NCBI GenBank assembly: GCA_963924565.1
Contig: OZ004610.1
Coordinates: 27,900,001-27,964,000 of the forward strand
DNA length: 64,000 bases
DNA from: Ascidiella aspersa
Taxonomy: Eukaryota
Direction of reading: 5' to 3'
Below the pieces are notes generated by a model. That model ran no database searches. It was given only the letters and a program-made list of their open reading frames with translations, and was not told the DNA's origin. Positions within the stretch are counted from its first letter, which is position 1. Each line of letters opens with the position of its first letter. This document shows positions 3,401-64,000 of this stretch, in pieces. A program made the position numbers and the translations under genes.

Positions 3401-3689
3401 TAAAGCACAAGACTAATAGTAACTGTGGTAAAAACATACCAAGTGCGCTAAGAAGTCAACGAGGCGTGGCAAATTCAGTGAAGCGTAACACGGCAGAAGA
3501 ATTTTTGACGAATCGCAGTCGTGTCCAGGCATACCATTGTCATTTCGGCGAAATAATTTTTCATGCTTTTTTTAACATTTTTTACGCCGTTTACCACAAT
3601 TTCACTTTCTTTTGCCTACGACGTATAAAACTGAACTACAATTAAATATGTTCGCGTTTTTTGTCATCAATATAATCAGATTGTCAATT

Positions 3690-9105: not shown

Positions 9106-9129
9106 AAGACCATCTGCATTTTTATGTTT

Positions 9130-13440: not shown

Positions 13441-13442
13441 TG

Positions 13443-25523: not shown

Positions 25524-25926
25524 GCCCTTAACTGTTTTATGATGTTCATGCAAAACATTATTATTAGCTTTCTTACAGAAAAAAATGAATTCCAATTCTG
25601 ATTGTTTAAAAGATATTACTGTATTTTATTTGTGTTTTTACTGTAATTGTTAATTGCAATTACACTTTTATAACTGTTTAATTTGATGTTATTTCCAAAC
25701 CCGCCTAGTAGTATTGTAAACAATAGTATATTAGATTACAAAAATACCTCACTCTTTGTCGATGCATTTTTTTAATGACTATTAGATTGTCATGAGTTCC
25801 AGCATCATTGCTGATACAAAGGCAGCATTGGTGTAATTTTGAGTTAAATACTGCCAAAAATGTTTTGAGGCCAAATGATAAATCATGCCTAATGTTTGTT
25901 TATAGATTTAAGTTTTCTTTAGTTAT

Positions 25927-26799
25927 ATGAAGTTGTTTAATTTTCTTTTGGGGTTTGTGATGGACAGCAACAGGAATTTCGAGAAAAGTATGAAGCGCTA
26001 TCAATGCAATTTGTTGCCAGAGCTTTTGGCCAAGGCAGTCAAAGAACTTAACGAGCCAGCATGTAATGACTTGCGTCTGGAAGCGATCGATTCTCTAAAA
26101 TCCGCCTTCGCTAAAACAACAACCGGATCGAAGCTGCCTCTGCAAAGTGATGAAACAGTACTCCGCTTTCTGAGAGCGAAGAAATTTAACCAGGAAAAGG
26201 CACTGGCCATGATGGAAAACTATCACAGGCAGAAAGAAGCATGGTCTGATGTGTTTGAAAAGGTCCGGGACCCAAGTAGAGTTAGAGGAACTTTGTCGGC
26301 AGGCTGCGTTGTTCCACTGTCAAAGCCAGCATTGGATGGATCAGCAGTTTTGTTTGGTTGTTTAGGTCGTCAGGAAAATATGCTCATGGTTGATATGATA
26401 GCCTGTGTTGTTCTAAGCTCGGAAAAGCTCCTCGAAAATGAAGCGACGCAAATTAACGGCATTACTGTTATAAACGATTTAACACACTTTGATTTAAATT
26501 TAGCCAAACAAATGACACCGGCTCTAAGCAAGCGGTTTATATCCCTGATGCAAGATGCAATGCCAATCCGACTTAAAGGCCTAATTTTTGTCAATGAACC
26601 GAAAATTTTTGACATTATTCTGGCTTTCAGCAAACCGTTTATGAAAGACAAAATGAAAAAGAGACTTCACACATACGGCACAAACTTCGTTAAGTTGCAC
26701 AAGTACATTGACAACAATTTCTTGCCAAAGGAGTATCTTGGCCAAGGCCCTGAACTTGATTCACAAAAATGGGTAGATTGCGTTTTCTGTGAATCATGA
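25927..26799 (+). CDS. CRAL-TRIO (alpha-TTP/clavesin/RLBP1-like) lipid-binding protein 1
   Basis: KAVKELNEP, LRFLRAKKF, QINGITVINDL, QDAMPIRLKG, LPKEYLG; the true start may be a downstream ATG (25960 or 25990). Confidence 0.9.
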   Translation: MKLFNFLLGFVMDSNRNFEKSMKRYQCNLLPELLAKAVKELNEPACNDLRLEAIDSLKSAFAKTTTGSKLPLQSDETVLRFLRAKKFNQEKALAMMENYHRQKEAWSDVFEKVRDPSRVRGTLSAGCVVPLSKPALDGSAVLFGCLGRQENMLMVDMIACVVLSSEKLLENEATQINGITVINDLTHFDLNLAKQMTPALSKRFISLMQDAMPIRLKGLIFVNEPKIFDIILAFSKPFMKDKMKKRLHTYGTNFVKLHKYIDNNFLPKEYLGQGPELDSQKWVDCVFCES

Positions 26800-27559
26800 G
26801 TTTCGTTTGATTTTTGTTTGACAGATTTCAACGTTACAGTTAGCAGTCACTGCCTGAAAACAATTTCACTGTGATATTATAACAGCATTTTCTGAAGGTG
26901 TCTAGACCGTTTTGTAAAGATTTCAAAACTACAATTGCACAATATGATAATGGTCAGCAAACAATTTTGTTCATCTTTTTATGTTGTCTATTTTTGGTAC
27001 GGATTGTAGAGGTACAACGTTTTGTGCAAAACTGTTTTTGCAGTGTTAATTCCTGTTTTGCCTCTTTTTCAGTTGGCTATAGTGTTACTTTGTTTAAGTT
27101 CTTTCAAATTAGTGAATTTCTTTTTGCTAAAGTGCTTTATGTACTTAAGAGTGTCATGATTTTGTTTGTTTGCATACACTAAGTCTGCAATTTACCACTG
27201 TTTAAGATTATTTTTCAATTATTTAGTTACCTTTCCATACTTTCTCCTAAGCACCAGCCTTTTTTATTAGGCACTAGCTTTTTACTAATTTGTTTAAAAC
27301 CTAAATTCTGGGTTTTGAATGAGATTCAAATGAAATAAGAAAAGAAAGAAAACAGCAATGAATACAACAATCACATTTTTTTGGACGTAATGTGCAATTT
27401 ACCCTTCTGGTATAGACATGAAGATAATTATGAAGAGGGTTTGCTAACAGACTGAAAAAAAATTTTCCGAAAAGATTGTTCATCATTTTTGACATAAGTA
27501 AGGTAGATAAAAAGTCACAGTCATAATTCCAATATCTTTTATTTCCACAGGTCCTTAAA

Positions 27560-28378
27560 ATGACTAGGTATGAATGTAAATTGTGTCCTGCTGTTCTGGC
27601 CAAGGCAGTTGAAGAGTTAAACGAACCAGAGGATAACGTCGAAAGATTGGCTGCAGTAGACAAGCTTCGTGAGGCATTCAAAGCAAATACAGACGAACTG
27701 AAACTCTTTCGCTCCGACGATGAATTCATTCTCCGCTTTTTGCGTGCGAAAAAATTCGACCAGAAAAGGGCCCTAAAGATGCTGATTAACTACCACGTAC
27801 AGAGGCAGTCGTGGCCAGAGGTGTTCGACAAAGTCAACAACCCAGCGCTGCTTACTCCTCTCATACAAGCGGGCTGCGTTTACGGCATTCGCAACGCTTG
27901 CAAAGATGGCAGCTCACTCTTCATGGGAAAACCTGGGAAGCAAAAAGACATGGTAATGACAGATTTCCTAGCCGGCCTCTTTCTGACTATCGAGAAGCTT
28001 CTAGAAAATGAAGAAATGCAGGTGCATGGCTTGACCGTCATTGAAGACATGTTCTACATGGACATGTCTGTCGCAAAACAGATGGGCCCGACATTTGCAA
28101 AGAGATTTCTTAGCATTTTGCAGGACTGTTTGCCTGTGCGATTGAAGAGTATAAATATGTTAAATGAGCCTACTCTTTTTGACGTCCTTTTCGCTATCGT
28201 CCGGCCTTTCATGAAGGAAAAAACCAAAAAACGTCTTCGCATACTTGGAACGCAGTTTGAGAAGCTGCATGAAAAAATTAATCCCTCTGTCTTGCCAGAA
28301 TCTTACGCTGGCACCGGGCCGGAGCAGGACATTGATGGATGGATGCACATACTTCTTGGTGGAGAAACTAATATTTAA
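27560..28378 (+). CDS. CRAL-TRIO protein 2
   Basis: 272 aa, DDEFILRFLRAKKF, QDCLPVRLKSI, LPESYAG; candidate 53-nt 5'UTR intron 27498-27550; AATAAA at 28407. Confidence 0.92.
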   Translation: MTRYECKLCPAVLAKAVEELNEPEDNVERLAAVDKLREAFKANTDELKLFRSDDEFILRFLRAKKFDQKRALKMLINYHVQRQSWPEVFDKVNNPALLTPLIQAGCVYGIRNACKDGSSLFMGKPGKQKDMVMTDFLAGLFLTIEKLLENEEMQVHGLTVIEDMFYMDMSVAKQMGPTFAKRFLSILQDCLPVRLKSINMLNEPTLFDVLFAIVRPFMKEKTKKRLRILGTQFEKLHEKINPSVLPESYAGTGPEQDIDGWMHILLGGETNI

Positions 28379-29491: not shown

Positions 29492-29960
29492 GTTTTTATC
29501 ATTTTGTTTGTTAATAATATTAATATGTGTTTAAAACACCAAATTAGGACATCTGTACAAATTTAAATTTATGGCAATCCAACGTCTATTGAAGTGATAA
29601 AACAATTTAAATGAAAACCAACTTGTTTTTAGTCAAAATAATGCCTATTTTGTTGCTGAAACATTGTATGGAAATATGTTGTAATTTGCAGAAATCTAAG
29701 CGAAATCTATGTTTTTAATGCTCTAAATGAGGTATTGTTTTGTGAATTTAACAAAGTATATATTTCTAATAAATAACCTAAACAATTGTGGGTATAGTAG
29801 GCCAGCAAATATGGGTCTATACCCACTCTAAAATATCATCAATAAGTAATCATGCTATGTATTTTATTATCTGTATCTGTCCATTGGTTTAAATCCAGGT
29901 AAGGTGAATAAAATGTAACAGTAATAATTCCAATATCTTTTGTTTCCTCAGGTCCTTAAA

Positions 29961-30779
29961 ATGACTAGGTATGAATGTAAATTGTGTCCTGCTGTTCTGG
30001 CCAAGGCAGTGGAAGAGTTAAACGAACCAGAGGATAACATCGAAAGATTGGCTGCGATAGACAAGCTTCGTAATGCGTTCAAAGCAAATACAGACGACCT
30101 GAAACTATTTCGCTCCGACGATGAATTTATCCTTTGCTTTTTGCGTGCAAGAAAATTCGACCATAAAAGAGCTCTAAAGATGCTGATTAACTACCATGTA
30201 CAGCGGCAGTCATGGCCAGAGGTGTTCGACAAAGTCAACAACCCAGCGCTGCTTACTCCTCTCATACAAGCGGGCTGCGTTTACATGATTCGCAACGCTT
30301 GCAAAGATGGCAGCTCACTCTTCATTGGAAAACCTGGGAAGCAGAAAGACATGGTATTGACCGATTTCCTGGCTGGCGTCTTTCTGACTGTCGAGAAGCT
30401 TCTAGAAAATGAAGAAATGCAAGTGCACGGTTTAACAGTTATCCAAGACATGTTCTACATGGACATGTCTGTTGCAAAACAGATGGGCCCGACATTTGCC
30501 AAGAGGTTTTTTGGCATTTTGCAGGACTGTATGCCTGTACGATTGAAGAGTGTGAATATAGTCAATGAGCCTACTCTTTTTAACATCGTTTTTACTATTG
30601 CTTGGCCTTTCATGAAGGCAAAAACCAAGAAACGTCTTTCCATACTAGGAACGCAGTTTGAGAAGCTGCATGAAAAAATTAATCCCTCTGTCTTGCCAGA
30701 ATCTTACGCTGGCACAGGCCCTGATCAAGATATTGATGGATGGATGCACACACTTCTTGGTGGAGAAACTAATATTTAA
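29961..30779 (+). CDS. CRAL-TRIO protein 3 (tandem duplicate of protein 2)
   Basis: 272 aa from ATG 29961, closely similar to 27560-28378; acceptor at 29951, donor at 29899. Confidence 0.9.
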   Translation: MTRYECKLCPAVLAKAVEELNEPEDNIERLAAIDKLRNAFKANTDDLKLFRSDDEFILCFLRARKFDHKRALKMLINYHVQRQSWPEVFDKVNNPALLTPLIQAGCVYMIRNACKDGSSLFIGKPGKQKDMVLTDFLAGVFLTVEKLLENEEMQVHGLTVIQDMFYMDMSVAKQMGPTFAKRFFGILQDCMPVRLKSVNIVNEPTLFNIVFTIAWPFMKAKTKKRLSILGTQFEKLHEKINPSVLPESYAGTGPDQDIDGWMHTLLGGETNI

Positions 30780-43506: not shown

Positions 43507-44469
43507 TTAAATGTTCGGCGTGCTTACAGCTTCAACTTTAGCTGCTTGAGCAGTGTGAAAGTTGCGCGGGCCGGCTTTCTTGGCCCGATTGCTGAAAGCG
43601 ACTATTTCCGTCCAATTTTCGAAAGAGAGCACAGCGAACATCACGTGGAGACACATGTCGATACTGTAAATTAAGTTAATATGATGCAACGCGTTGTCAC
43701 GATGCAAGTTGATCATAAACGATAGAGCCACGTCACAAGCTAAACCACAAGCTGTGATCGCTGCTATACGTTTGGCGACGCGCAAAATCTCTTGCGCGTG
43801 TCTGCCGCGCAAATGAGAGCGCAGCGGAAAGAGGAACTGGAAAACCAACGATGCTCGTGCCACCCACATCACACTGACCAGCAAATACTCCGGACAACTG
43901 GAAATCGAAACCGGACCGTCGTCGGTGCAGCCAGTTCCAGAATCTTCAGTCGCATGAACGTACGCGTAATAAGACTGAACCGCGAATATACCGAAAAGGT
44001 ACAGCGACAGTATCGACCATTTGAAAAGTTTCAACAGCGGGTTGATGTCCTGTATAATGGATATGTTTACATACAGGTAATGGAGTCTCAGCCAAAAAAG
44101 CAAGTAATAACATAAAAAGAAATATAGAAAACAAATAACGCCCAAAATGGTGGCAATCCTGCAGTAAACCTGTGACCCAACGCCATGCTCTAGGTCTAGG
44201 TTGAGAACAACTTGGTCAGAAACCAAACCTATTAAGCCGAAAACAAACGTTGAAAGGCTAACGAAGTAAATTGGCCTGCGGGTGACCTTCATCCCGTACG
44301 AAGAGTTCCCAGCCTTTTTCCATTTTCCGCTGCGTATCCCGTAAACCACGAAGCTGCCGATGAGCCAAATTAAGCCGACAATTTCAATAACGTTCAAGGC
44401 CCTTGCTGCTGCATTCCATTCGGGTGGACCCAGTCGAGAAAAATTACCGGACTCGTTTCCTTTCAACAT
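43507..44469 (-). CDS. Orphan intronless 7TM (GPCR-like) protein, copy A
   Basis: 320 aa, about seven hydrophobic segments, N-terminal sequons (NES, NFS), Cys at top of TM3 (YCR) and in loop 2 (GC), TM3 end motif YLLFWLRLHYLY. Confidence 0.85.
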   Translation of the reverse strand: MLKGNESGNFSRLGPPEWNAAARALNVIEIVGLIWLIGSFVVYGIRSGKWKKAGNSSYGMKVTRRPIYFVSLSTFVFGLIGLVSDQVVLNLDLEHGVGSQVYCRIATILGVICFLYFFLCYYLLFWLRLHYLYVNISIIQDINPLLKLFKWSILSLYLFGIFAVQSYYAYVHATEDSGTGCTDDGPVSISSCPEYLLVSVMWVARASLVFQFLFPLRSHLRGRHAQEILRVAKRIAAITACGLACDVALSFMINLHRDNALHHINLIYSIDMCLHVMFAVLSFENWTEIVAFSNRAKKAGPRNFHTAQAAKVEAVSTPNI

Positions 44470-47400
44470 TTCAGGAAGTTTCCAAGGTTGAGAAATGAAA
44501 TCCCAAACAAGCGTTCTTGAAAATATAGTTATATACTGATAACTTCTTTAAGTTGGAAAATTATAGATTATTAAAAAGTAAAGTTGGGTTTGAAATAAAA
44601 CTGTACATTAACTGTAAAATAAAGAGGTAAAGAACACCTTCATAATGCAAAATGATTTATTTCAGACGAAAGTAAACAAGTAGGCTACCTTCACATCTCA
44701 TTTTTTGCAACTTAAATCATATTACAAAGTGTTTATATTATGCAAAACGAATGTTGTGTTTGCATTACCTACTTCGAAAACGTTTGCCGAAACCAGTTCT
44801 GTTGCCGAAACTAGTTCTGTTGAAATATTTTTCTTATACACAATATTTTTTACCATAGCTTTGTACTGCTGACTACAAACCCAACATTATGTCTAAATCG
44901 CTATAGCTTATATACAGCACATAGTCACCAGTTAAAAGTGCTTGCTATAGCAATTTTTACTGCCGTCTAATTAACTACAATACTCTCCTGTCACTTATTG
45001 AGATTCACCTAAGTTAATAACATAGGCATTTATTTCTATATGACAAAATAAAGTGATGCAACACAAATGTAGACTCTTGTGCGTCTTGCAAGTCAAATAT
45101 ATAACATCCTAGATAATTTTTCTATTATTCCCAAAAGCTCTAATCTAATTGCATTTCGGCACTCTTTTAAAAAGAATTACCGTCTGGGCTTTGATACAAA
45201 TATCATGTATTGCCGAAACCTATATTCAATCCCAAACGCCACTTTTCCCAATCATCTTAACGCGCCAGGAAAAATACTACCAGGATGCGTCTGTCTACGG
45301 TCGCGGTTAAATACCAAGAAATAATGGCCTGCGTAAACCCTTTGTGATGTGAAGCAACCAACTCTGCTGGGATTGACATTTCCTGAACATGTTCGCCTTG
45401 GAATACCTGTCCCCGCTCTATAATAGGCTAGGTCAAGTAAAATTTAGGGCGTTGGTCAAGTTAAAAAATATATCTACAGTACATTGAAACTTCGCAAGGA
45501 ATAGCGGGTCGGCAAGATTTTACAAAGAATTCGAAAGTCATTTTGTCCATTGAAAGACAGAGGGAGCAAGTCCAAACCGACATCCTTCTGTAGCTGATCA
45601 ACGGTTCGCAAAATTTGACAATAATTACAGTCGCTCGCCAAATCATCACATTTTAGACTTTGCTGTAGATTATTTTTGACTTTTCCAAGTAGATAAAAAT
45701 TTCCGAATTCGGGAAAACTGCAAATCTAACTAAAATCAGAGACAAAAATTTCTACGCATATAATGTCACTTTTTAGGCTGAATGATTGAACTGCATAGCT
45801 GAACCTTGCTTCCTCTAATAAGAATAAAAATCACCTTTGGACAAAATAGCATTTTGATAAAATTGATTATTAGTAGGGCGATTATTTTTTGACTAGTCAA
45901 AAAAATTACACGTTAGGTCAAAATTATTTCAGGTGAAAATCTTTACAAAATGCACGAACATCATTTACAAAATTAACAAAACTTGTGGTAAAATTGTCGC
46001 TCAAGTTATTATTTTAACAAAATTAGAGTATGCGGTATATGCGAGCAGGCATAATCAACCATGCATGCCTTGTTTATCGCATTAGGTTCAGACCGAACTT
46101 CGTTTTTGCCTCTGATAATTGTGTATTCCTGAATTCATAAAAATGTATTGAACAGTTTTTGATGAGTGTTTTTTCGTTTTTTTTTCGGTATTTATAAATA
46201 TGTTCGGTTTCGAAATTTTTGCTGGTCTTGTTACCTTGTATTTCCACCACACTGCTTTCTGAACAATTTTCTAAAACAACCAACATCTTGTTTTTCTTTG
46301 GTCTAATTGTTTGTTTGTTTGATATGCAAAAAATATCAACTATATAAGCGTTCATAAGTTTTGCATAATCCCAACAAAATATATGATTCGTTAACCACCA
46401 ATCGTCAGTAAAACATCAAAACAAATGACTGACGACGAAGCAATACACTAATTGCAGTACTTTATAGTTTGTAGTTTATACAACAAAGCATTGCTTAAAT
46501 CAATATATGTTTTTATTGGTAAAATTTTTGTCAAAAAAATATATTTATAGGTCCAAAGATAAATTTTTTAGGTAAAAATGTATTACTTTTAAGTCAAAAA
46601 ATAATCTCCCTAAAGTTAGATAGCAACTAAAATTGGAGCACACAATTTACAACTAGTGCTTGACGTCAAGTGACGAAGAATCTGTACTTATGAAGGGGTT
46701 TCCCCACTGAGTGCAGTGATAGCAGCATGGTCGGTGATTGCGGGTCTTTTGCTTTAAGAAGCTTCAGAGAGCCCACAGACCGATAGGACAGGTTAGTTGC
46801 AACAACTGTTTGGTGCTAATTACAAGCAATTCGAAATTGGAACGCACAATCAATTTAACTTGTGATGGTCAAATCGATGAATGACTTTAATGAGTGTCTC
46901 ACTTTACTATATGTGTGATGTATATTAAATACTTTTTTATTGTTTAAAATTACTGTCAAATGCATTTGGGATTATTTTAGTGCAGGAAATATTTAGCAAA
47001 CTGTTTATATAGGAAATTGTAATGCTAGCTATGTTTTTGTAAACTTTACTCTATCATTTTGGCTCCAAGCAATGCATCCCCGCCTTAAATAACTTAACCA
47101 TATAAAAATATGCTGCATAACGCAACGTAAACACCTGTTGTAAAATGTTTGGTAACCCTTGCGTTGGAAGAATTTGCTAAATTTAAAAGAAGTGCCAATG
47201 GGACCATGTTAGTGCGACTGTTACTTTTGACTGGGGAGGATTAACAACCGCTATATCAAGTAAGACAAAGTATTAGTAAAAAAGTTACTTTTTCCTGCTA
47301 AATTTGGAAAGGGTTTCAAAGTTTGCTTCTATATACAAGTTAATGGTGTAATAATTCTTTTAAACGGAATTTATTCGTTATTTATTGGGAATATCGAAAC

Positions 47401-48843
47401 TGTCACATGTTAGTGGCAAGCGTTTTGCGTTCAGCTTCGCTAACCCCTCTACTTTTACCAGCATGCATTTTCACGTTTGTCGCAATAACGCTTTTCCTTT
47501 GTGACCTTATTTGATTCGTGCACCGCTCTAACCCGCTGTTCCGCCTTATTTGCTTGAGATTTTCGTAACCAATCGATTTATCACATATAGCAGTATTTTT
47601 AAATTGATCTTTATTATTGTATTTAGTTTTTAGATTTTTTTTTAAAACATTACTCTTGTTTGGCTGATTGCTTGATTTTTTCATCCAAAGCGTTTTGCCT
47701 CTCGAATTGGTTAAATCAGTCGGATTTAAAGCCTAACAATTTAAGATTGTGATTTTTCTGAATGCGACTTTTCCGTTTTTAGAACGGCGAAAATACACCC
47801 GTCGCAATACTACTGAAAGCTGCGGATGCCACCCTTCTACTGCCCTACAGAAGAAATTACTCTTTTAAGTATTTTGTGAACTCCGTTGTTTTTGTTTTTT
47901 TAGACAGGTTCTCTGTTGCCTTTCAAGATAAGGCTTTTCTACAGTTGCTATATGCTGCAATATTACTCACCAGTAAATATCGAAGAGGGTATCGCGCTTC
48001 GCCAAAAGGTGTACTACTGCGAAGCTTATACGGGCCCTGATTTGAAGTTTTATGTAAGTCTTACTTACCGAATATTGAGTAAAATGTTTTGTTTCTGCCA
48101 AATGCTTATAACAGCTTTACGTTTTTATACATAATACATTGTATAGTAAATCGACCGCTGAAACAGAAATTGTGTGTATGGTAGAACATATGCGCAATAA
48201 ACTTACTATATAATGTGAAGTCATTCGGGTGACGCGTTTGACCGATTTACGTGAAACCTTGAAGCCGCTTGTCGTGAGTGTGCAATAGTTCCGATCGACA
48301 AGTACAACAAAACATTTTTTTCTCTCCACGAATAAAAATAAAGCGCGAATAGTTTTTTGGACTTTTTTTTTTTGGGGGGGGGGGGTTATTTTGCTAAAGA
48401 TGGACTCGTTACTCGGGGAATCTTACTCGTGCGCATGCGCAGTACCAAATTTAGAAAGCGGTCAGCACACAAACTGTTTTTTTTTTCACGATGGAATAGT
48501 TTATAGATAAATATCTTTACCCAACGTTGTATATGCGTGATTATACCCCTTTGAGTAGATTTCTGTAAATCGGCGTTATTTTAGTTGCATAAATGGACGA
48601 AAACACGCTGTAGGCTACAGTCGGAGATTGATTCGACAATTGTTTTTAACTGACTCAACAGCTCTGTGTGCAGCCGGCATTTTTCATAAAATACAAACAT
48701 GTGAGATTTGATTCCGCACTATCACTTGGTTAAACGAAAATATTTTGGTATTTACCATTGCCGATCCTTGTTATAAGGGTAAGATTAAGTCATACTTACT
48801 GTGGATTATCATGCAATGATGTATTCGAAAACAGGTGTGCCGC

Positions 48844-48879
<36 letters not shown>

Positions 48880-50848
48880 TTAGTGTGCCGCAAGCTAAAT
48901 GGTTTGAGAACCAATGCTTTATGTGTTTAATTTGATGATTATTCTAGTTGACCAGTTCTAGTTGGCTGCTGATTCTAATTTAACTTGTGAAATTCTTGTG
49001 TGCTCCAATTTTAGTTATTATCTAACTAACGATTTTATTAAATTGCCCTTACTTTTTTAGTTTTTTAATGGAAACAAGTTTTTAGCAATGTTAGGTCAAT
49101 CATTTAGTCTGAAAAGTGCTAATATAGGAGTGGGAATTTTGTCATTCGTATTCTTAGAAAACAATTTGATTTCTATTGATTGTGAATTGGCGAAACCGAG
49201 CCTGATACTAGCTCAGATTTTTTGTAGTTTTTTTTTTTTTCGAACTTGTCAATTTTAATCTTATACTTAGGAAAACTTGAAAACAATCTACGGTAATTCA
49301 ATGTGATAATTTGGCGATTGGCTATTATTATTAATATAAAATTTTGTAAACCATTGATCAGCTACGGAAAAATGTCGATTTGGGCTTTGCTCCTCCTGTC
49401 TTTAAATTAACAAAGAGGCTTTCAAATTCTTCGCGAAATCTCGCCAACCCGCTATTCCTTGCGAAGCTTCAATGTAAGTATATATTTTTAACTTGGCCAA
49501 AGCCCTTACATGAACTTGACCAAGCCCAGTATAGAGCGCAATTATAGTTCGTTAAAGGCGATCATGTTCAGGAAATGTCAATCCCAGCAAAGTCGCCCGT
49601 TTTTACCGGCCTTAATTTGTGAGCGTTGCATTTTAGTTGCCTTACATCACAAGGTTTAGGTTGGCCATTCGAGAAAATGCATCTCGGTGGAATTTTTCCT
49701 GGCGCGTTAGAAAAGGGGCGCTTTAGGCTGAATATAGGTTTCGGCAATACATTTTCAATTATATCGTCCATCAGAAGCAGTCAGACGGCAACTCTTTTTA
49801 GAGCGATAAAATGCAATTAGATTAGAGCTTTTGGGGCTAATAGAAAAATTAATTATGCACAAAGTTGTATGTTTGGCTTCCAATTCGTACAAGAGTTTAC
49901 TTTAACGTTATATATCATCACTTTATTTTGTCATATAGAAATGAATTCATAAATTTTGTACGGATAATATAAAACCACTTTGCAGTAAAAATGCATAGTG
50001 AAGCTAATTGTTTACTTTTATCTAAAATTAAACATTTGGCACAAAGAACGTAGACTTATGTCAGACTACAGCTATAAGACATATATATAAGAACATCAAC
50101 GTTGAAATAAAACACAGTTCGGAAAAAGACCGAAATCGGACTTCCAGTCGTAATACCGTCCTAATCAGATTAAGTTCGAAATCCGTCGGAATTAGGCGTA
50201 AATGGTCATAATCAGGTCTATGCAGCATTTTACCTAATCCTAAACCCACCCCTAAGCACATTTTTAACTACCCTAATAGTTTTAACCCAAACCCAATATC
50301 TAATCCTCAAAATTACCCCCAAATAACCCCAAACAGGGGAAAATCCGGAGCCAAAAGTGCGGCGCGCTGACGGAGCTGGTCAAACTAGGGCATCCAAACG
50401 TTGACACCAAAAAGACTGATGCCAGATCGATGGCCCCGATTTGGCCATAATTTCAAACTACGCAGTATCAGGTGTCATTTCAGCCACATAGGCCCTATTC
50501 CAATGAATTTAGGACGTATTCCGACAGGTTTAGGTCTTACTAAGACGATTTAGATCTTATTCTGACGTGGATATTACTGATGTGTATTCGGCTTTAATAA
50601 GTCGTTGGTCTTAGTACTATGGTATTATAGATTTTTAGTCTGCTATAGATATTTGTTGTCATGTAGGTCTTATTGTGTGTTCCCCAATTGTGTCCTATTT
50701 TACAAAAAAGAATGCTCTACCCTTTTTATAAATTGCAACTTTACCTTCTAGCATAGATGCAAACTAGCAACTGTAGTAACTTATTTGTTTAACTATTTGC
50801 GATAACGCTTGTTCGGCATTTTATTTACAACCTTGGAAACGTCCTGAA

Positions 50849-51811
50849 ATGTTAAAACAAAACGCATCCGGTAATTTTTCTCGACTGGGTCCGCACGAAT
50901 GGACTGCAGCAGCAAGGGCCTTAAACGTTATTGAAATTCTCGGCTTAATTTCGCTCATCGGCAGCTTCGTGGTTTACGGGATACGCAGCGGAAAATGGAA
51001 AAAGGCTGGGAACTCTTCGGATGAGATGAAGGTCAACCACAGGCCGATTTACTTCGCCAGCCTTTCAACGCTTGTATTAGCCTTTTTACTTTTGGTTCTT
51101 GATCAAGTTGTTCTCAACCTAGACCTAGAGCATGACATTGGTTCGCAGGTTTACTGCAGGATTGCTACCCTTATTGGCGTTATTTGTTTGCCGTGTTTCT
51201 TTTTATGTTGCTACTTGCTGTTTTGGCTGCGACTCCATTACCTGTATGTAAACATATCCATTATACAGGAGATCAGCCCGCTGTTGCAACTTTTTAAATG
51301 GTCGATACTGTCGCAGTTCATTCTCAGTATATTCACGGTTCAGTCTTATTACGCGTACGTTCATGCGACTGAAGATTCTGGAACTTACTGCACCGACGAC
51401 GGCCCGGTTTCGATGACCCAATGGCCGGTGTATGTGGCAATCAGTGTGATGTGGGTGGCACGAGCATCGTTGGTTTTCCAGTTCCTCTTTCCGCTGCGCT
51501 CTCATTTGCGTGGCAGACGCGCGCAAGACATTTTGCGCATCGCCAAACGTTTAGCAGCGATCACAGCTTGCGGTTTAGTTTTCAACGCGGCTCTCACGTT
51601 GGCCGTCGACTTGTTTCTTGACAAAGCGTTGCATCTTTATATCTTATATTACGGTTTCGACATGTGTGTTCACGTGCTTTTCGTTGTAGTCTCTTTTGAC
51701 AATTGGAGGGAAATAGTCGCTTTGAGCAACTGGGCCAAGAAAGCCGCCCCGCGCGAATCTGGCACTGCGCAAGCAGCTACAGTTGAAACAGTAAGCACGA
51801 CGTACATGTAA
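50849..51811 (+). CDS. Orphan intronless 7TM protein, copy B
   Basis: 320 aa, colinear paralogue of copy A. Confidence 0.85.
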   Translation: MLKQNASGNFSRLGPHEWTAAARALNVIEILGLISLIGSFVVYGIRSGKWKKAGNSSDEMKVNHRPIYFASLSTLVLAFLLLVLDQVVLNLDLEHDIGSQVYCRIATLIGVICLPCFFLCCYLLFWLRLHYLYVNISIIQEISPLLQLFKWSILSQFILSIFTVQSYYAYVHATEDSGTYCTDDGPVSMTQWPVYVAISVMWVARASLVFQFLFPLRSHLRGRRAQDILRIAKRLAAITACGLVFNAALTLAVDLFLDKALHLYILYYGFDMCVHVLFVVVSFDNWREIVALSNWAKKAAPRESGTAQAATVETVSTTYM

Positions 51812-53891
51812 GCAGTACTTCTCGACCTTTTTTGCGGCGCACGAAAATACTAAGCACAAGTTTAACGACGAGGCTTTGACGACCCAACCCTCTCGACTGC
51901 ACTCTTTGCAAGTTTGAAGTGAACAAAGCACCAATCAGCCAATAACATCAATAGGCTTGGCTTTTAATTAATATGAGCCATATTTTCGTATTGTTTTTAT
52001 AGCTTTCTGTAAAATTACAGAAATCTTGCTTAGAACTAATCTTAATAAATCTTACAATGTAAACCAGTGGTTTCCAACCTTTTATGGCTTACGGCGCCCC
52101 TACTAGAATTTTCGTAACCTAATTGACTCACTCACAATAAACGGAACTGGAACAACAAACATCAACTCTTACACAATGTAGAAGAATGCAATTTAATTCT
52201 TCATAGTCTAATTATGCACATAAAGTTATACGAAGCTTACCAGTTTAGCAAGAATCAGATTCTTAAATATTGCCGAATATCTCTCGGTACTCTTGAGCAT
52301 TAGAAGTGGCACCCCAGGGTTTCGTGTGTTGATAAGGAGACGGAAATTTCATATTACTATTGTTATATTTTTCAGGTTTAACAAAAAAATTTACACATTC
52401 AGGAGTGAAGAATGGCCGGTTGTGGAAGAACCTAGGCGACAACCCTTTGGTAATTTGTGTTGCCAAAAACCTTACACCAATAATCGTGGTTCGTGTTGTT
52501 GTTGTTGTTTATTAAAAAATATTGACTCACATAAATTTTCGTTCGATTTACATTGCGACTTGTATTGTAAAACCAACTGCTCCTTTTTTCTTTGAATGTG
52601 GTTCAGGGATGATTAGATAAAATTTATTTATCTTTGGTAGTTTGCTGAATATAGGATGCTTTATAACCGTGAAATATAATTTCTTAACATTTTGAAATTT
52701 ACATGTTGTGTTCTTATTATGCCACAGCTTGACGTTTGCTAACGACCAAGAATCACAAAACGGGTCTACCACATAATGATTTCTTGTGGTTGTAAGACCT
52801 TTAATCTTGCATTGAGTATTTAGATATTTTAGTAAACACGGCGTTAAACAATAACGTGTTGTCTGCTAAAAAACCGTCGTTCAGTTTGAAACATGAGGCA
52901 AGTAAATTTTTAGCAGTTCAGTTTTTGACAATAAAAACTGACCTGAATTTGCACATGGTTAAGTTATAAATACCTTTCCGCATAATACATGCTCTAATTT
53001 CAAAATGTGAATGCTGACGACCTAAAGGTTTTTTGTCCTTAATAACACTGTCCAACGCTACAAGACTACCTAATAACACATATCCCAAGAAACTGAAAAT
53101 AATTAACTCCTACTCAGTTGATATTTTAGAAATTATATACGTCTTTCTTAGAAGGATTTGTCCTAGTTCCAAAGTGATATGAATAATCCTTCGTGCACAC
53201 TAAAAATACATCAAAGTCCTCCAACTGCAAATTGTGGTTTTGCTTATCTTTTTAACAGAATTTTAAGTGACTTTTCGGCGACAGAATGAATTTTGTTTCT
53301 TAACGATGTTTCCTATTAAAAATAAAAAAAACGGGGTAAACACAAAATATTCATGGTTAAATCAACAAAAGAAGAGATATATTTCAGTTAAGTAAAACAC
53401 CGTTTTGCATTTTTTGCATTTTTAAGTAAAACACCGCGTAATATTCCTTGGAGCGAAAATTGTCCTCTTTTTGGGCAATGTAAATGTGGTTGGGCAATGA
53501 TAAATTCATTTTGGTGATGCGTCGATAATAGCACGAGAGATTTGGGGGAATATTTAAGAATCTTATTTTGCTAAACTGGCAACTATGCCACGTACAACTC
53601 TTTGGGTACGATTGGACTACACTACAAAGAACCAAACTACTGTTCCTTGCATTATATAGAGTGGATGTGTGACGTGTGTTGTTCCGGTTCCGTTTAATGT
53701 GAGATAAAAGTGAATTACTTCACAAAATATCTAGAAGGGATGCCGCAAGCCATAAAATATTAAGAACCACCGATTAACATGGTAAGATTTACTAAGATTA
53801 ATTCTGAGTAAGATTGCTCCAAAGTTAGATAAAGCTAAAGAAGCAATACAAAAACATGGCTCATATTAATTAAAAATCAACTTTATTTATG

Positions 53892-54980
53892 CTATTGGCT
53901 GATTGGTGTGTTGTTCAAGCTTGCAAAAGCTCTGTCGAGAGAGTTGGGTCGACAAAGCCTCACCGATAAACTTGCGCTTAAAGTATTTTGTGCGCCGCAA
54001 AAAATGTCGTGTTCGGCGTTCGTGTTCGGCGTGCTTACTGTTTCAACTGTAGCTGCTTGAGCAGTGCCAGAGTCGCAAGGGCCGGCTTTCTTGACACAGT
54101 TGCTCAAAGCGACTATTTCCGTCCAATTTTCGAAAGAGAGCACAACGCAAAGCACGTAACCACACTGGTCGATACAGTAAATTAAGATAAAATGATGCAA
54201 AGCGTTGTCACGATGCAAGTTTGTGACCAACACAACAGCCACGTCGAAAACTGAACCGCAAGCTGTAATCGCTGCTAAACGTTTGGCGACGCGCAAAATA
54301 TCTTTCGCTCGTCTGCCGCGCAAGTGAGAGCGCAGCGGAAAGACAAACTGGAAAATCAACGATGCTCGTGCCACCCACATCACACTGCCCAGTAAATACA
54401 CCGGCCAACTGGAAAGCATAATCGGGCCGTCGTCGGTGCAGCCAGTTCCAGAATCTTCAGTCGCATGAACGTACGCGTAATAAGACTGAACCATGAATAT
54501 ACTGAGAAGGTAAAGCGACAGCATCGACCATTTGAAAAGTTTCAACAGCGGGTTGATGTGCTGTATGACGGATATGTTCACATACAGGTAATGGAGTCTC
54601 AGCCAAAAAAGCAAGTAATAACATAAAAAGAAATATAGAAAACAAATAACGCCCAAAATGGTGGCAATCCTGCAGTAAGTGCGTGACGTAATGTCATGCT
54701 CTAGGTCTAGGTTGAGAACAACTTGGTCAGAAACCAAACCTATTAAGCCGAAAACAAACGTTGAAAGGCTAACGAAGTAAATTGGCCTGCGGGTGACCTT
54801 CATCCCGTCCGAAGGGTTCCCAGCCTTTTTCCATTTTCCGCTGCGTATCCCGTAAACTACAAAACTGCCGACAAGCCAAATCAGGCCGACAATTTCAATA
54901 ACGCTTAAGAACTTCGCTGCTGCGATCCATTCGGGCGGAGCCAGTCGAGAAAAATTACCGGGTGCGTTCCCTTTAAGCAT
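53892..54980 (-). CDS. Orphan intronless 7TM protein, copy C, with 42-aa C-terminal extension
   Basis: 362 aa; colinear with A and B up to VSTPN, then reads into former 3'UTR. Confidence 0.85.
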   Translation of the reverse strand: MLKGNAPGNFSRLAPPEWIAAAKFLSVIEIVGLIWLVGSFVVYGIRSGKWKKAGNPSDGMKVTRRPIYFVSLSTFVFGLIGLVSDQVVLNLDLEHDITSRTYCRIATILGVICFLYFFLCYYLLFWLRLHYLYVNISVIQHINPLLKLFKWSMLSLYLLSIFMVQSYYAYVHATEDSGTGCTDDGPIMLSSWPVYLLGSVMWVARASLIFQFVFPLRSHLRGRRAKDILRVAKRLAAITACGSVFDVAVVLVTNLHRDNALHHFILIYCIDQCGYVLCVVLSFENWTEIVALSNCVKKAGPCDSGTAQAATVETVSTPNTNAEHDIFCGAQNTLSASLSVRLCRPNSLDRAFASLNNTPISQ

Positions 54981-56282
54981 TTCTTTAAGTTTCCACGGTT
55001 CAGAACTGAAATCCTGATTAAGCGTTTTTAAAATAGTTATATACTAATAAATTCTTAAAGTTGGAGGATTTCTTCTGCGCTGAAAAGTTAAGTTAGGTTT
55101 CAAGTTAATCTGTGCACTAACTGTGAAATAGAACAGTAAAGATCACATTTGTAATGCAAAATGATTTATTTAGGATGAAATTAAACAAGTTGCTTCACAT
55201 TTGATTTTATGCGAACTAAATCGTATTACAAATTATTTTTTATCTTAACACACCTTATGTTGTGTTTGCATTAACTACTTCGAAAAACCTTTGCCGAAAC
55301 TAGTTCTGTTGTTACCGGTTTAAGATGAAATGTTTTTCTTATACAAATTATTTTTTACCACAGGTGTAAACTGCTGACCACAAAACCAACAATATACGCA
55401 AAGCGCTGAAGCTTATACAGCAGATAGTCACCCGTTGAAAGTGCTTGCTATAGTAATTTTTACTGCCATCTAATTAGCTAGTAGCTACATGCTGACCTGT
55501 CACTTATTCCTTAAGTTTAAGTATATAACATAAGCATTTATTCTATATGACAAAATAAAGTGATGAAATATAAAGGTAGACTCTTGTGTGTCTTGAAAGC
55601 CAAATCTGCAACATCCTGGATAATTTTTTCATTATTCCCAGAAGCTATAATCTAATTGCATTTCGGCGCTCTATCACAAAGAATAACCGTCTGCTGGGCT
55701 CTGATATAAATACCATGTATTGCCGAAACCCGTATTCAGCCCAAAGCGTCACTTCTTGCAGTCCTTTTAACGCGCCAGGGAAAATACTACCAGGATGCGT
55801 CTGTCTAAGGTTGCGGTCAACTACCAAGGACGAATGGCAATTACCTAAAACCTTATGTGATGTTAGGCAACCAAAATGCAACGCTTACAAATTAAGGTCG
55901 GTAAAAACGGGCGACTCTGCTGGGATTGACATTTCCTGAACATGTTCGCTATTATTTCAGGTGAAAATCGTTTACAAAATGCACAAACATCGTTTACAAA
56001 ATTAACTTGGAGAAAAATTGCCGTTCAAGGTATTATTTTGTGAAAATTAAACTAGGCGGTAAATGCGAATCAAAATCTTGTTTTTCATTGGTCATTTTAT
56101 AATTGTTTGTCTTTTTGATATGCCAAAATTGTCAACTACCATTCAAGTGTTTTACATAATCCCAACAAAACATATGATTCGTGAACCACCAATCGTCAGT
56201 AAAACATCAAAAACAAATGAGTGACGACGCAAAACACTAATGCCAGTACTTTATAGTTTATACAAGATCGCATTAGTTAAAT

Positions 56283-56821
56283 CAGGGGTCGGCAACCTGC
56301 GGCCCGCGGCCAGCCAACGAAATTCATCCGGCCAGCCGCCTCTTTGACAAACTAGACTTCTTATACTTTTTGACTATTTGAACTACGTAAGCGCAAAAAA
56401 TTTTTTTGATCTTTCTACATCCAGTTTGTTAACGTTATGAAGCTGTATTTTTAACTAGATCGGCGTTTCGTAACCATTGCGCCGTGGAAGGCTGCCAAGT
56501 ATTGGACAAATATTGGACAGCTATTTTTATTTTTATTTTCGGCTATGTAATAAAAATTGCAGGAAATACCGCTATACCAAAAAAATCGCGCTCGCCAGTT
56601 GCGCCGCCACATATTTCGAGGTTCACGTGCACCCTAACTTCAAAAAGATTAACAAACACTTAACAAGATTAACCATCTAAATTATCGCGTCTCCTCAAAG
56701 TAGTTTTATTACACTTTTCATTAGTATTATAGATGATGACCTGTGGACTCGCAATTTAAACTGCAGATACCTTTCTAAGTTTGGCTTTGGCCCGCGACTA
56801 GAAAAAGGTTGCCGACCCCTG
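56283..56821. mobile_element. hAT MITE specific to the second unit
   Basis: CAGGGGTCGGCAACCT...AGGTTGCCGACCCCTG; empty site GCTTAAAT at about 46493 in the paralogous unit. Confidence 0.88.
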
Positions 56822-57146
56822 GCTTGAATCAATTTATTTCTTATAGGTCAAATTTTTGTTATAGGTCAAGTTAATTTTTTAGTAGAAATTTATTTTTTAG
56901 GTCAAAAAATAATCGCCCTAATTATTAGATAGTAACTAAAATTGGAACACAAAAGCAATTCTCAACTATAGACGGGGGTGCGGTTGTTGTATATTTTGTC
57001 ACGGGGTATATTTTCAGGTCTTGGTGTTTTTTTTTAATTTTTAATTTAAATTTTTTTTTTTTTTTTTTTGATATTTTTGTATTTTGTCTTGTATATTTTA
57101 TATTATATATTTTATATAACTTGTTTCTGCAAGCAAAAACAGATAT

Positions 57147-59289: not shown

Positions 59290-62200
59290 ATATAACTAGT
59301 GCTTGACGTCAAGTGACGAAGAATCTGTAGTTATAAAGGGGTTTCCCCACTGAGTGCAGTGATAGCATGATCGCGAGTCTTTTGCTTCAAGGAGCTTCAC
59401 AGAGAGCACAGACCGATAGGACAGGTCAGTTAAAACAAGTGTTTGGTGCTAATTACAAGCAATTCGAAATTGGAACACACAAGCAATTTAAATTAACTTG
59501 TGATGGTCAAATCGATGAATGACTGTAGTTGAGTGTCTCACTTTACTATATGTGTGTATATCACCTGTTTGTTTACTAATTTAGTTTAAAATTACTATCA
59601 AATGCATTTTTATTTAGTGCAGGAAATATTTAGCAAACTGTTTATATAGGAAACTGTAATACAATCTGTAAATTTTGATTAAACTTTATTCTATCACATT
59701 GACTTTAAGCAATGCATCCCAGCCTTAAGTAGCGTAACGTAAACACTTGTTGTAAAATGTTGGTGACCCTTGCTTTAGAAGAATTTGCCAAACTTATAAG
59801 ATGTGCCAATGGGACCATATTAATGAGACTGTCACTTTTGGCTGCAGAAGATTAACGGCCGCTATATCAAGTAAGTGTGGTCATCAGTTTCTGTAAGTTT
59901 GGACTGAGAAAAATGAAAATACTAACAAGCGAGCGTTGGTAAAAAAGTTGCTTTTTACTGCTAAATTCGGAAAGGGTTTCAAAGTTTGCTCCTAATCCCA
60001 ATTTAATAGTGTAATAGTTGTTTTGAACGTAATATGTTCGTTATTTATTTGAAATATTAAAACAGTTCAATGTCAGTGCCAAGCGTTTTGCGTTCGGCTT
60101 TGCTAACCCCGCAACTTTTACCAGCATGCATTTTTACGTTTCCGCTCCATTTGCTTGAGATTTTGGTAAACAATCGATTTATCACTTAGCAGTATTTTTT
60201 AATAAATTCTTATTATTGAGGAAAAGTTTGATTTTATTAAAAAAACATCACTCTTGTTGTGCTGATTGCTTGATTTTTTTCATCCAAGTTTTATAACCAA
60301 AGTGTATAAGTTACTTTTATATACTTAGGTTCTCGCAATTGTTTCAGGTTTACGTTGGAATACTGGTAACAAAAATGTACTTTAGGAGTTTTGCCTCTTC
60401 AATAGGCTGAATCAGTCAGATTTAAAGCCTAACAATTCAAGATTGTGAGTTTTCTGAATACGACTTTTCCGTTTTTACATCGGCGAAAATAAAACCCATC
60501 GCAATACTACTGAAATCTGCAGATGCCACCGTTCTACTGCCCTACAGCGCCAAAGAAATTACTCTTCAAAGTACTTTTGTGGACTGTGCTGTTTTTGTTT
60601 TTGGAGACAGGTCTTCTGTTGTCTTTCAGGATTAGACTTTTTCTACAGCTGCTATATGCTGTAATATTATTTTCCAGTAAATATCAAAGAGGGTATCGCG
60701 CTTTTCCAAAAGTTGTACTACTGCTAAGCTTATACGGCCCTGATTTGAATTTTTATGTAAGTCTCACTTACCGAATATTAAGAAAAATGTTTATTTCAGG
60801 CAAATCGCTTATAACAGTTTTACGCTTTTATACACAATATTTTGTAATAAATCGACCAATTAAACTTCTAGGATTGAAAAGCAACATTGTGCATGAGTGT
60901 GTGGGATAGAATATACAAATCATTAACACTTGCGCAATAAAGCATATAATGATGACGTCATTCGGGTGACGTATTTGATCGATTTTCGTGAAACCTTGCA
61001 GCCGCTTGTCGTCAGTGTGCAATAGTTCCAATCCACAAGGATAACAAAACGTTTTTTTTCTTCTCGAATTAAACTAAAGCGCCTAAATCGCGTACCGTAT
61101 GTTTTTGAATTTTTTTTCGTTTATATAAATATATATATATAAGTTCCCCATTGTGAACTTGGCGCGTTTTGGCGTTTATTGTTATATTTTTGTTTCTGTT
61201 TGTTATACCCTTGTTCGTGTTTTATTGTATTGTTATCATTGTATTGTATTGTATTTAGTTATCATTGTAATTATTGTATTGTATGGCAAAGGTGCCATTC
61301 ACAAATTGTGCCCCTTCTGTCGCTTGTTTTGCACCGTTGCCCTTTTGTTTTTTGCTGTTTGTTTGTACCTCTTTTTGTTTTGTTTTTCCACAAAGATTGT
61401 TCACTGTTACAGCAGCCACTAATGTGGCCAAAATTATGTTGTTTCATTGTATTTAATTGTTTTTTAATGATTTAATTTGCCGTACCTGTACATGTATTCT
61501 GATTATATTGCGGTCAGGGAGCGGCTGACTTTGATGACCTAACGGTCTTTCGCTGCTCCCTGGGAATCTACTTCCCTAACAATAAACATATCTATTTATG
61601 TTATATTATAAAAACACACTTCCTCGCTTTTTTGTTTGATAATTTGCAAATCGGTTTGAATCCAATTGACTCCCATCGCTTCCAAGTGTATTTAATGACA
61701 AGATGTTTTTTTGCTTGTCTTAATGCCATTTTTGAAGGGTTCGAATTATACAAAAAAACACTGAGCTTAAGCCAGACACTGATACGTTTGCTGTGGTTTT
61801 GACATTTTAAAATTTATGCTTTGTATACGACCCAAAGATATCCTTTCGAATTTGCTCGCTAACTGTATCCACAAGTGATCTTGAGTGTTATAAATGTAAC
61901 GTTTAAAACTGCTGTAAACTTCAAAATAAGTTTTTTGTCAGACCAGTCAAGTAACCTCCCAGCTGGTATAGCGATTTGCTAACCGGTACGAATTTCGTTC
62001 GTCCCTTCGTTTTGTTCTTTTTCGACTTTTCTTTATAGAATAGTTCTCCCCTCTTTTTTACGCTGCACATTTAATTTGCTGCTCGCTGTTAGTTACTCGA
62101 AAACAGGTGTACCGCCATATTTTGTTTAGATATTTTTGGTGTGCCGCAAGCTATATGTTTGGAAACCAAGCTTCGTGTGTTCAATTTGATAATTATTCTA

Positions 62201-64000
62201 GTTGACCAATTTTTAGATATATAGCGATTGGCTGCTGATTCTAATTTAACTTGTGAAATTCTTGTGTGTTCTGATTTTAGTTATTATCTCATTACCGATT
62301 TTATCAAAGTGCCTTTATTTTTTTTAGCTTTTTTAAAGGAAACAAGTTTTTAGCAATGCAGATCAATCATTCAGCCTGAAAAGTGCCAATATAGGCGTAG
62401 CAATATTTGTCATTCGTATTCTTAGAAAACAATTTGATTTCAATTAATTACGAATTATTGAAAACAAGCCTAATTCTAGCTAAGATTTTAGTTTTTTTGC
62501 ATTTTTTTCAGAAATCGTCAACTTTGATCTACTTTGGAAAATATAAAAACAATCTACAGTAATTCAATGTGATAGTTTGGCGATTGAATAGTATTATTAT
62601 TGTCAAATTTTGCAAACTGTTGATCAGCTACAGAGATATGTCGATTTAGACCTAGCTCCCTATGTCTTTCAATGGACAAGGGGACTTAAAATTCCTCGGA
62701 AATCTCGCCGACCCGCTATTCCTTGCAAAGCTTCAATTTATAAATTAACTTATTAACTTTACCAAGCCCAGTATAGAGCGAAGACAGGTCTTGTTCGGCG
62801 AACATGTTCAGGAAATATCAATCCCAACAGAGTCGCCCGATTTTACCGACCTTAATTCGTAAGCGTTGTTTTTTGGTTGTCTCACATCACATAATGTTTA
62901 GGTAGGCCATTCTTACTTTGCATTTGGCCGCGATCATCGACAGATGCATCTCGTTAGCATTAAGTGGTGTTTTCCCCCTGACGTGTTAAAATGATTGGGA
63001 AAAGGGGCGCTTCCGGCTGAAATACATTGTCATTTATATGAAAGCCCATCAGAAACAGTTAGAGGGTAACTCTTTTTAGAGCGCCGAAATGCCATTAGAG
63101 AGCTTTTGGGGATAATAGAAAAATTAATTATTTATGATATTGTATAATATTTGACTTCCAAGTCGCACAAGAGTTCACATTTACTTTATATATCATCACT
63201 TTATTTTGTCATATAGAGATGAATTCATAAATTTTTTATGGAAAATAAAAAAACACTTTCTAGTAAAAATGCGTAGTGAAGCTAATTGTTTACTTTTATC
63301 TAAAATTAAACATTATGCACAAAGAACGTAGACTTCTGTCAGACTACAGCTATAAGACCTATATAAGAACATCAACGTTGAAATAAAAAACAGTTTGGAA
63401 AAAGACCGAAGTCAGACTTCTAGTCATAATACCGTCTAAATCAAATTAAGTTCGAAATCCGTCGGAATTAGGCGTAAATGGTCAGAATCAGGTCTATGCA
63501 GTATTTTACCTAATCCTAAACCCACCCCTAAGCACATTTTTAACTACCCTAATAGTTTTAACCCTAACCCAATTTCTAATCCTCAAAATTACCCCCAAAT
63601 AACCCCAAACTGGGGAAAATCCGGACACAAAAGTGCGGCGCCCTGACGGAGCTGGTCAAACTAGGGCATCCAAACGTTGACACCAAAAAGACTGATGCCA
63701 GACCGATGGCCCCGATTTGGCCATAATTTCAAACTACGCAGTATCAGGTGTCATTTCAGCCACATAGGCCATATTCCGATGAATTTAGGACGTATTCCGA
63801 CAGGTTTAGGTCTTACTAAGACGATTTAGATCTTATTCTGACGTGGACATTACTGATGTGTATTCGGCTTTAATAAGTCCTTGGTCTTAGTACTATGGTA
63901 TTATAGATTTTTAGTCTGCTATAGATATTTGTTGTCATGTAGGTCTTATTGTGTGTTCCCCAATTGTGTCCTATTTTACAAAAAAGAATGCTCTACCCTT

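Follow-up and report, generated by a model that had tools for sequence, protein, structure and literature searches.

What do the three closely related genes A, B and C encode, which lie in a 64,000-nucleotide stretch of the Ascidiella aspersa genome (GenBank assembly GCA_963924565.1, contig OZ004610.1, positions 27,900,001 to 27,964,000; here called the window), and what might their products detect? Tunicates, which are the vertebrates' sister group, respond to chemicals without orthologues of the OR, V1R and V2R receptors; according to the accessible part of PMC7776563, which receptors they use is an open question, and the seven-transmembrane (7TM) proteins proposed as substitutes have no established function. 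The available portion of a 2008 census of Ciona G-protein-coupled receptors (GPCRs) lists no olfactory or TAS2 receptors (PMC2396169). Here, we found that A, B and C are the newest tandem copies within a large family of ascidian seven-helix membrane proteins. We regard them as predicted GPCRs, likely derived from class A and likely detecting external chemicals, and we give this statement as a whole a probability of about one half. A single earlier paper had put the family forward as a candidate, and it lacks a Pfam entry, name, ligand and structure; our analysis adds a testable GPCR mechanism, built on Arg128 and the C-terminal helix of Gα, and estimates how large this family, at present the best candidate for the tunicate chemoreceptor repertoire, is.

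Genes A, B and C and their family

A preliminary description, made from the letters of the window, had reported three paralogues here, and they are indeed present: each coding region is uninterrupted in the open reading frame (ORF) analysis ("intronless" refers to the coding region only), the proteins are mutually 73-81% identical, and each has seven hydrophobic segments. Three further cluster members, D, E and F, follow beyond position 64000. An 8.1-kb duplication at 94% identity copied B and C into D and E, and D is 95% identical to B. The sixth copy, F, comes after D and E and is broken by stops and frameshifts; the local cluster thus comprises five intact genes and a broken one, and an additional intact member of the clade (L006) lies 2.7 Mb off on the same contig. 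Gene C encodes 42 extra residues because its stop codon was lost; its near-twin E (locus L003), just outside the window, keeps the stop at codon 321, the same place as in A and B. A non-coding block shared by A, B, C and D at 70-74% identity lies 0.6-1.6 kb upstream of each receptor gene and may contain the promoter or a first exon that is not translated.

Three single-protein searches of the same genome (308.6 Mb) gave 57, 120 and 96 matches. After merging, these represent about 155 places on nine contigs, many of them broken; matches within 1.7 kb were merged (other gaps give 145-160), and the figure, which includes fragments and pseudogenes, is a lower bound on reach and not a gene count. 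Another such place lies within 50 kb of 116 of the ~155, and the largest array holds 29. When 1.84 billion proteins were searched with a profile of 23 paralogues, 934 cluster representatives matched at E ≤0.001. Four of the 30 clusters looked up carry names, all of them uncharacterised ascidian proteins (Ciona intestinalis, Phallusia mammillata, Clavelina lepadiformis and Styela clava); the remaining 26 clusters, like most of the 934 matches, are without names. The taxonomic range stated here rests on these four species, which together presumably span all three ascidian orders. The commonest group among the language-model feature (Atlas) neighbours was Chordata. A word-based homologue search found no match for gene B or the 23-sequence alignment, which reflects its sensitivity limit, since the profile search finds relatives. 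Together with the GPCR-type fold described below, these data support the earlier proposal of a lineage-specific, expanding 7TM family.

A 106-sequence tree places the six genes of the window clade on a long branch (0.92 substitutions per site, support 1.0) nested in a genome-specific expansion; the nearest named relative is Ciona XP_078491754.1 / LOC100180121. Expanded members mostly have one coding exon, and introns split several deeper members (L074, L090, L091, L093, L095 and L099). Long third intracellular loops of up to ~250 residues occur in L064 (G000:C5:32453000-32456400), L065, L066, L074, L091 and L093. In several of these deeper members an intron interrupts the long loop, and those with introns are matched by close counterparts in Ciona; the expanded clades, unlike them, have short loops and no coding introns.

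The preliminary description found the family not assignable to any named class, which was too strong. Judged by sequence, the window genes are members of the tunicate-specific 7TM family mentioned in passing by Johnson et al. (2020; PMC7397655), already flagged there and never named or characterised. The accessible text of that paper describes KH.C3.516 as a Ciona 7TM gene for which BLAST gives no hits beyond tunicates. It is found specifically in the axial columnar cells of the larval palps, where it is concentrated at the exposed tips, and the authors propose its family as possible tunicate chemoreceptors, without functional proof. The window genes share the general build of that family, namely seven transmembrane (TM) helices, ~300-400 amino acids and no other domain. 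Searches connect them stepwise: gene B found L030 (E 1.2e-24), and L030 found L074 (E 1.2e-11) and L079 (E 2.7e-9). Compared by eye, with no computed alignment, ~89 of 111 residues of L074 match the printed KH.L25.4; visual comparison likewise shows the motifs of KH.C3.516, helix by helix, in L079 and in the arrays of contig 6. A third homologue search, with residues 172-296 of L079, returned one unnamed protein at 44% and not the Ciona protein, and the link to KH.C3.516 rests on the comparison by eye. The two contig-6 arrays contain ~14 KH.C3.516-like genes (contig C6, 24.33-24.37 and 25.11-25.16 Mb; loci L073, L075, L076, L097, L098 and L131-L136), diverge most in loop 2 and TM5, and are the best place to seek palp-expressed orthologues.

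In the literature within reach of our search, which excluded subscription journals and bioRxiv supplements, no other work treating this family was found; the accessible part of a 2024 paper uses KH.C3.516 only as a marker. Nor did we find there any earlier mention of the Cys-Arg register, the Gα docking or the outer/inner rate difference reported below. The available text on the choanoflagellate GPCR families RSF and GPRch (PMC12716839) describes no tunicate family, GPRch3 having been considered by description only.

Fold, conserved residues and predicted G-protein docking

The AlphaFold model of the gene B protein reached a predicted local distance difference test (pLDDT) score of 74 with 23 sequences, and a pLDDT of 85.3 and a predicted template modelling score of 0.85 with 150. 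It contains helices at residues 15-46, 65-90, 98-139, 144-174, 192-217, 223-255 and 261-281, and a short helix at 286-290. The 50 Foldseek matches listed are GPCRs of classes A, B and C except for two microbial rhodopsins; the best E value was 1.2e-3 and none was below 0.001. We are nearly certain that the predicted fold is a 7TM bundle in the GPCR/rhodopsin arrangement, as the preliminary description had supposed from topology. The modelled fold alone neither picks a class nor proves G-protein coupling.

Some candidate classes could be set aside. For TAS2R (class T) there was a fold tie only and no Pfam or PDB-sequence match. Microbial rhodopsins have a retinal-binding Lys, and residues 261-283 are without Lys in all three proteins. 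Membership of GOST (TMEM87/GPR107/WLS) was rejected on the absence of the N-terminal GOLD domain, TM1 beginning at residue 15-18.

The Cys pair of TM3 and loop 2, noticed at the outset in the three proteins, proved to be a family feature: Cys103 and Cys181 are unchanged in 150 of 150 aligned members. Trp126, Arg128, Tyr133, Gly180 and Phe283 are conserved at ≥90% across these members, 132 of which also have a short N-terminus with a glycosylation sequon. The peptides FWLRLHYLY and FPLRSH, initially described as invariant, are so in A, B and C because the three are recent duplicates; they occur in 5 and 6 of 65 ORFs of the same genome, respectively, and in none of 150 public relatives. The family-wide motif is W-x-R-Q-x-x-x-Y, and the window genes carry W-L-R-L. 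In 199 of the 202 sequences that bear the motif (13 of 215 do not), the residue exactly 25 positions ahead of its Arg is a Cys, and at other distances between 20 and 30 a Cys almost never occurs; the Arg position itself is filled by Arg in 89-90% and by Lys in 8-10%. The Cys103-Arg128 spacing equals that between Cys3.25 and the DRY Arg of class A. The same spacing was found in 4 of 12 class A receptors of this genome, which are all those with a Cys there; the remaining eight have no Cys there or, in one case, the motif was mis-picked. Class B and C receptors have their conserved charged residue at other distances. DRY, CWxP and NPxxY are missing from the sequences of A, B and C. Looked for over the full length of the sequences, CWxP was present in 1 of 65 ORFs and in 3 of 150 relatives, and so was NPxxY. 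The original statement that DRY and NPxxY are lacking is thus literally correct, although the DRY Arg is kept in register.

The family at large shows a conserved polar core at Arg81, Asp108, Gln205, Asp246, Asp269 and Asn275. The window clade keeps the Cys pair, Trp126, Arg128, Tyr133, Pro215, Arg234 and Phe283, and has replaced the family-conserved residues at 81, 108, 205, 269 and 275. Because these five conserved intramembrane polar residues were replaced on a fast, derived branch, the ligands of the window clade likely differ from those of the rest of the family.

We modelled residues 10-300 of gene B in complex with a Gi-like α subunit from the same genome, L151, the most conserved of the intronless copies. 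The complex scored 0.64, against 0.44 for the best of three controls, and just attained the docking mark; 51 of 78 solved complexes attain it, as do 2 of 108 mismatched pairs (39/65 and 2/126 in the eukaryotic set). The runs had ≥81% of contacts in common, with a partner pLDDT of ≥73. In the model, Gα inserts its C-terminal helix into the space framed by TM3, TM5/6 and the turn from TM7 to helix 8; the interface pairs Gα residues 341-357, 33-34 and 195-196 with receptor residues 128-141, 219-231 and 282-285, and loop 2 lies against Gα 33-34 and 195-196. Arg128 contacts Gα 353, which corresponds to residue 351 of Gi1 by alignment offset, and this presumably represents the canonical class A Arg3.50 contact. 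The predicted pose agrees with the independent argument from the Cys-Arg spacing, and we consider G-protein coupling through Arg128 a prediction of these models that is probably correct.

Six intronless Gi-like Gα genes, 65-86% identical to L151, form a tandem array, and a seventh lies on another contig. The C-terminal receptor-binding tips in the array diverge strongly among copies, and some copies have altered P-loop or switch residues. They are possible dedicated transducers for expanded receptor families; intronless Gi-like copies were already known from tunicates, as the accessible part of PMC5896119 reports.

Rates of evolution in the outer and inner halves

Pairwise dN/dS among the six intact clade genes ranges from 0.22 to 0.97, with dS up to 0.27. 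When sites were pre-split by topology, omega was 1.25 in the extracellular half versus 0.62 in the cytoplasmic half (p 8.5e-6); 70 of 130 columns are variable in the outer half and 44 of 134 in the inner half. The asymmetry was significant in three of five clades, with 0.37 vs 0.22 and 0.84 vs 0.44 in two further clades, and family-wide column entropy was 2.85 outside vs 2.28 inside (p 5e-7). Variation had first been ascribed to TM2, the region after loop 2 with TM5, and TM6-7. Among A, B and C, variable columns are indeed most frequent in TM6 (14/29) and TM7 (13/23), and also in the third extracellular loop (ECL3; 3/5), whereas TM2 (8/27) and TM5 (7/27) are average; the outer versus inner half of the bundle describes the variation better than single helices. 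The polar inward helix face is not significantly enriched in variable outer sites (29/47 vs 25/51, p 0.23) or in radical changes (18/47 vs 11/51, p 0.08). Thus, the notion of a diversifying ligand pocket retains its faster outer half, whereas neither an omega above 1 nor a bias to the inward face could be established. The naive empirical Bayes list flags every variable site, so no single site is claimed. Such a rate asymmetry is expected of a receptor whose intracellular partner is fixed and whose ligands vary; relaxed constraint on the outer half would look alike.

Proposed mechanism and alternative explanations

We propose that the ligand would bind among the outer helix halves, beneath a loop 2 tied by the disulfide. 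The conserved cytoplasmic face comprises W-x-R-Q-x-x-x-Y in TM3, Y/F-P-L where TM5 ends, an Arg where TM6 begins and S-F-x-x-W at the turn between TM7 and helix 8; it would open to admit the C-terminal helix of a Gi-like α subunit, with Arg128 predicted to play the role of the DRY Arg. Expression would be in exposed sensory cells, and the function chemosensation such as settlement or siphon sensing. The sensing of external chemicals is likely, given the localisation of a distant Ciona paralogue, the chemical responses of the palp cells and the birth-and-death pattern of the family; axial columnar cells of the palps answer chemical cues, according to the accessible part of a preprint (10.1101/2023.07.03.547492). 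Two read runs over the locus covered genes and spacers alike and gave nothing readable on expression.

Several observations speak against our reading. No sequence had a Pfam match above the cut-off (0/3, 0/23 and 0/68), and A, B and C had none even at E 10; one relative, P0064, has a sub-threshold 7tm_1 match (21.1 bits vs a cut-off of 30.5), and profile comparison with the 12 class A receptors of the same genome gave 11% probability (E 0.0027), with TM4 to helix 8 in order. Neither profile gave anything meaningful when searched against PDB sequences. The best class A structural Z score was only 14.4. The complex score lies exactly at the +0.20 margin over the control, the docking result may reflect likeness to the abundant solved GPCR-Gi complexes, and the model score does not distinguish among G proteins. 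On the tree, a long distance separates the window clade from KH.C3.516, so sensory expression need not carry over. Regarding rates, the overall omega of 0.88 under model M0 also fits relaxed constraint, the outer omega is not significantly above 1 (p 0.14), and two of the five clades tested, both older, showed no outer/inner difference. The site-wise dN/dS check suggested at the outset gave borderline results (M1a/M2a p 0.12, M8a/M8 p 0.04), with gene conversion among paralogues left out. On balance, class A ancestry seems to us somewhat favoured.

The best-surviving alternative is that these are GPCRs that sense cues of an internal or immune kind (microbial metabolites, allorecognition, gamete signals) and act in blood cells, the gut or the tunic, in a role like that of FPR or MRGPR. 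Structure and evolution fit it equally, as immune receptor families, too, form expanding arrays and vary on their outer side; published expression concerns one distant paralogue only, and the conserved intron-containing L074, L090 and L099, with apparent one-to-one Ciona counterparts, suggest fixed internal ligands for part of the family. We nevertheless consider it unlikely: the sole localised member is found at environment-exposed palp cell tips (PMC7397655, accessible text), and known chemoreceptor families are missing in tunicates, which leaves that role open (PMC7776563, accessible part).

Still less likely are 7TM proteins without G-protein signalling, acting in GOST/TMEM87-like trafficking or lipid handling, or as channels. 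TMEM87A ranked first by structural Z in each of the two models, at 16.8 and 17.0 (the latter with a root-mean-square deviation (rmsd) of 3.7, 234 aligned residues and 5% identity), the wider family has a conserved polar core, and the nearest named clusters by Atlas features are those of the fungal 7TM family DUF7703 (PF24802; 0.86, 125-130 of 256 features), which, being under the 0.9 mark, is a lead only. The DUF7703 hidden Markov model matched nothing over its cut-off in this genome, and the term was not found in the literature searched. However, microbial rhodopsins (Z 16.4) and TAS2R14 (Z 16.0, rmsd 4.4, 258 aligned) are tied with TMEM87A, within 1 Z unit; only ~17 residues precede TM1, leaving no GOLD domain; arrays of ~155 members with pseudogenes are unexpected for housekeeping trafficking proteins; and the conserved cytoplasmic face accepts a Gα helix in the model.

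That the family is functional and the six-gene clade consists of redundant duplicates drifting to decay, the apparent diversification being relaxed constraint, would suit the M0 omega, the broken copy, the copy without its stop codon, the long branch and the loss of family-conserved residues, yet we rate it lowest, as five genes of the local cluster, and a sixth at a distance of 2.7 Mb, remain open over ~320 codons with dS up to 0.27, the inner half is under purifying selection and 26-33% of sites fall in the invariant class.

Our preferred reading, chemosensory GPCRs likely derived from class A, has a bolder form, which we find doubtful as a whole: the family would be the missing tunicate chemoreceptor repertoire, an independent class A-derived lineage of >150 receptors replacing the lost olfactory receptors, keeping only the DRY Arg and signalling via the tunicate-specific intronless Gi-like subunits expanded in the same genome. 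Its size is comparable to that of fish olfactory repertoires. If true, it would mean an independent origin of a chordate chemoreceptor repertoire and would offer targets for settlement control in fouling ascidians. Young paralogue sets differing on the outer face are material for deorphanisation.

Positions of the genes and other features

The table gives positions in the window unless a contig is named. Among the features outside the receptor cluster, the last two CRAL/TRIO genes are ~90% identical in DNA, and the two GNAT genes may resemble arylalkylamine N-acetyltransferases. Elsewhere in the genome, on many contigs, single open frames of 900-1900 codons contain dozens of matches to class A receptors; these are probably an intronless expansion of receptors of the LGR/LDLRR type.

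Table 1. Receptor genes, key residues, duplications and further features (aa, amino acids)
Feature	Position	Strand	Remarks
Receptor gene A	43507..44469	-	320 aa, single coding exon, 7 helices
Receptor gene B	50849..51811	+	320 aa, single coding exon; protein used for modelling
Receptor gene C	53892..54980	-	362 aa: 320-aa receptor plus read-through tail
Gene C tail, 42 codons	53892..54020	-	stop codon lost at a short 13-bp tandem repeat
Cys103 of gene B, TM3 start	51155..51157	+	class A 3.25 equivalent; family-invariant
Arg128 of gene B, W-x-R-[Q/L]-x-x-x-Y motif	51230..51232	+	Cys103+25, class A 3.50 register
Cys181 of gene B, loop-2 G-C motif	51389..51391	+	invariant; predicted disulfide with Cys103
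8.1-kb tandem duplication, first copy	48867..56921	+	94% identical; holds genes B and C
8.1-kb duplication, start of second copy	62120..64000	+	runs past window end (62120-70153 in extended coordinates); holds genes D and E
Shared upstream non-coding blocks	45028-45737, 49235-49946, 55541-55949, 62484-63224		identity 70-74%
Gi-like Gα genes L151-L157	G000:C1:4766040-4782372 (array) and G000:C8:11045917-11046831		
Three tandem single-exon CRAL/TRIO genes	25912-26799, 27527-28378, 29928-30779	+	alpha-tocopherol-transfer/retinaldehyde-binding-like
Two single-exon GNAT acetyltransferase genes	15106-15849, 24879-25523	+	Pfam Acetyltransf_1, E 0.01 and 1e-6
382-bp tandem repeat, two inverted occurrences	7732-9106 and 13439-14451		94% identical
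189-bp tandem array	3689-4518		

Comparison with known systems

With class A receptors, the family shares seven helices followed by helix 8, the TM3-loop-2 Cys pair, the Arg 25 residues after the TM3 Cys, the short N-terminus with a sequon and the predicted Gα docking geometry. It differs in having no acidic residue before the Arg, no CWxP or NPxxY and no above-cut-off 7tm_1 match, and its structural Z for class A lies below those for TMEM87A and TAS2R14. GOST proteins (TMEM87A, WLS) give the best structural Z for the helical bundle; however, the present proteins lack a GOLD domain, form a large variable family as opposed to a few conserved genes, and possess the GPCR-type Cys pair and Arg register. 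The TAS2R, V1R and OR families and the nematode serpentine chemoreceptors resemble them in their single coding exon, tandem arrays, pseudogenes, lineage-specific expansion and variable outer half, but no sequence relationship was detected, and we regard them as functional analogues only. The closest comparison is the KH.C3.516 family, which has the same length, topology and tandem arrays and the same motifs, that is, the TM3 Cys, L-W-x-R-Q-x-x-x-Y, the loop-2 G-C, L-x-P at the end of TM5, an Asp in TM6 and N...S-F at TM7; the window clade stands on another branch from KH.C3.516, with the family-conserved polar residues replaced.

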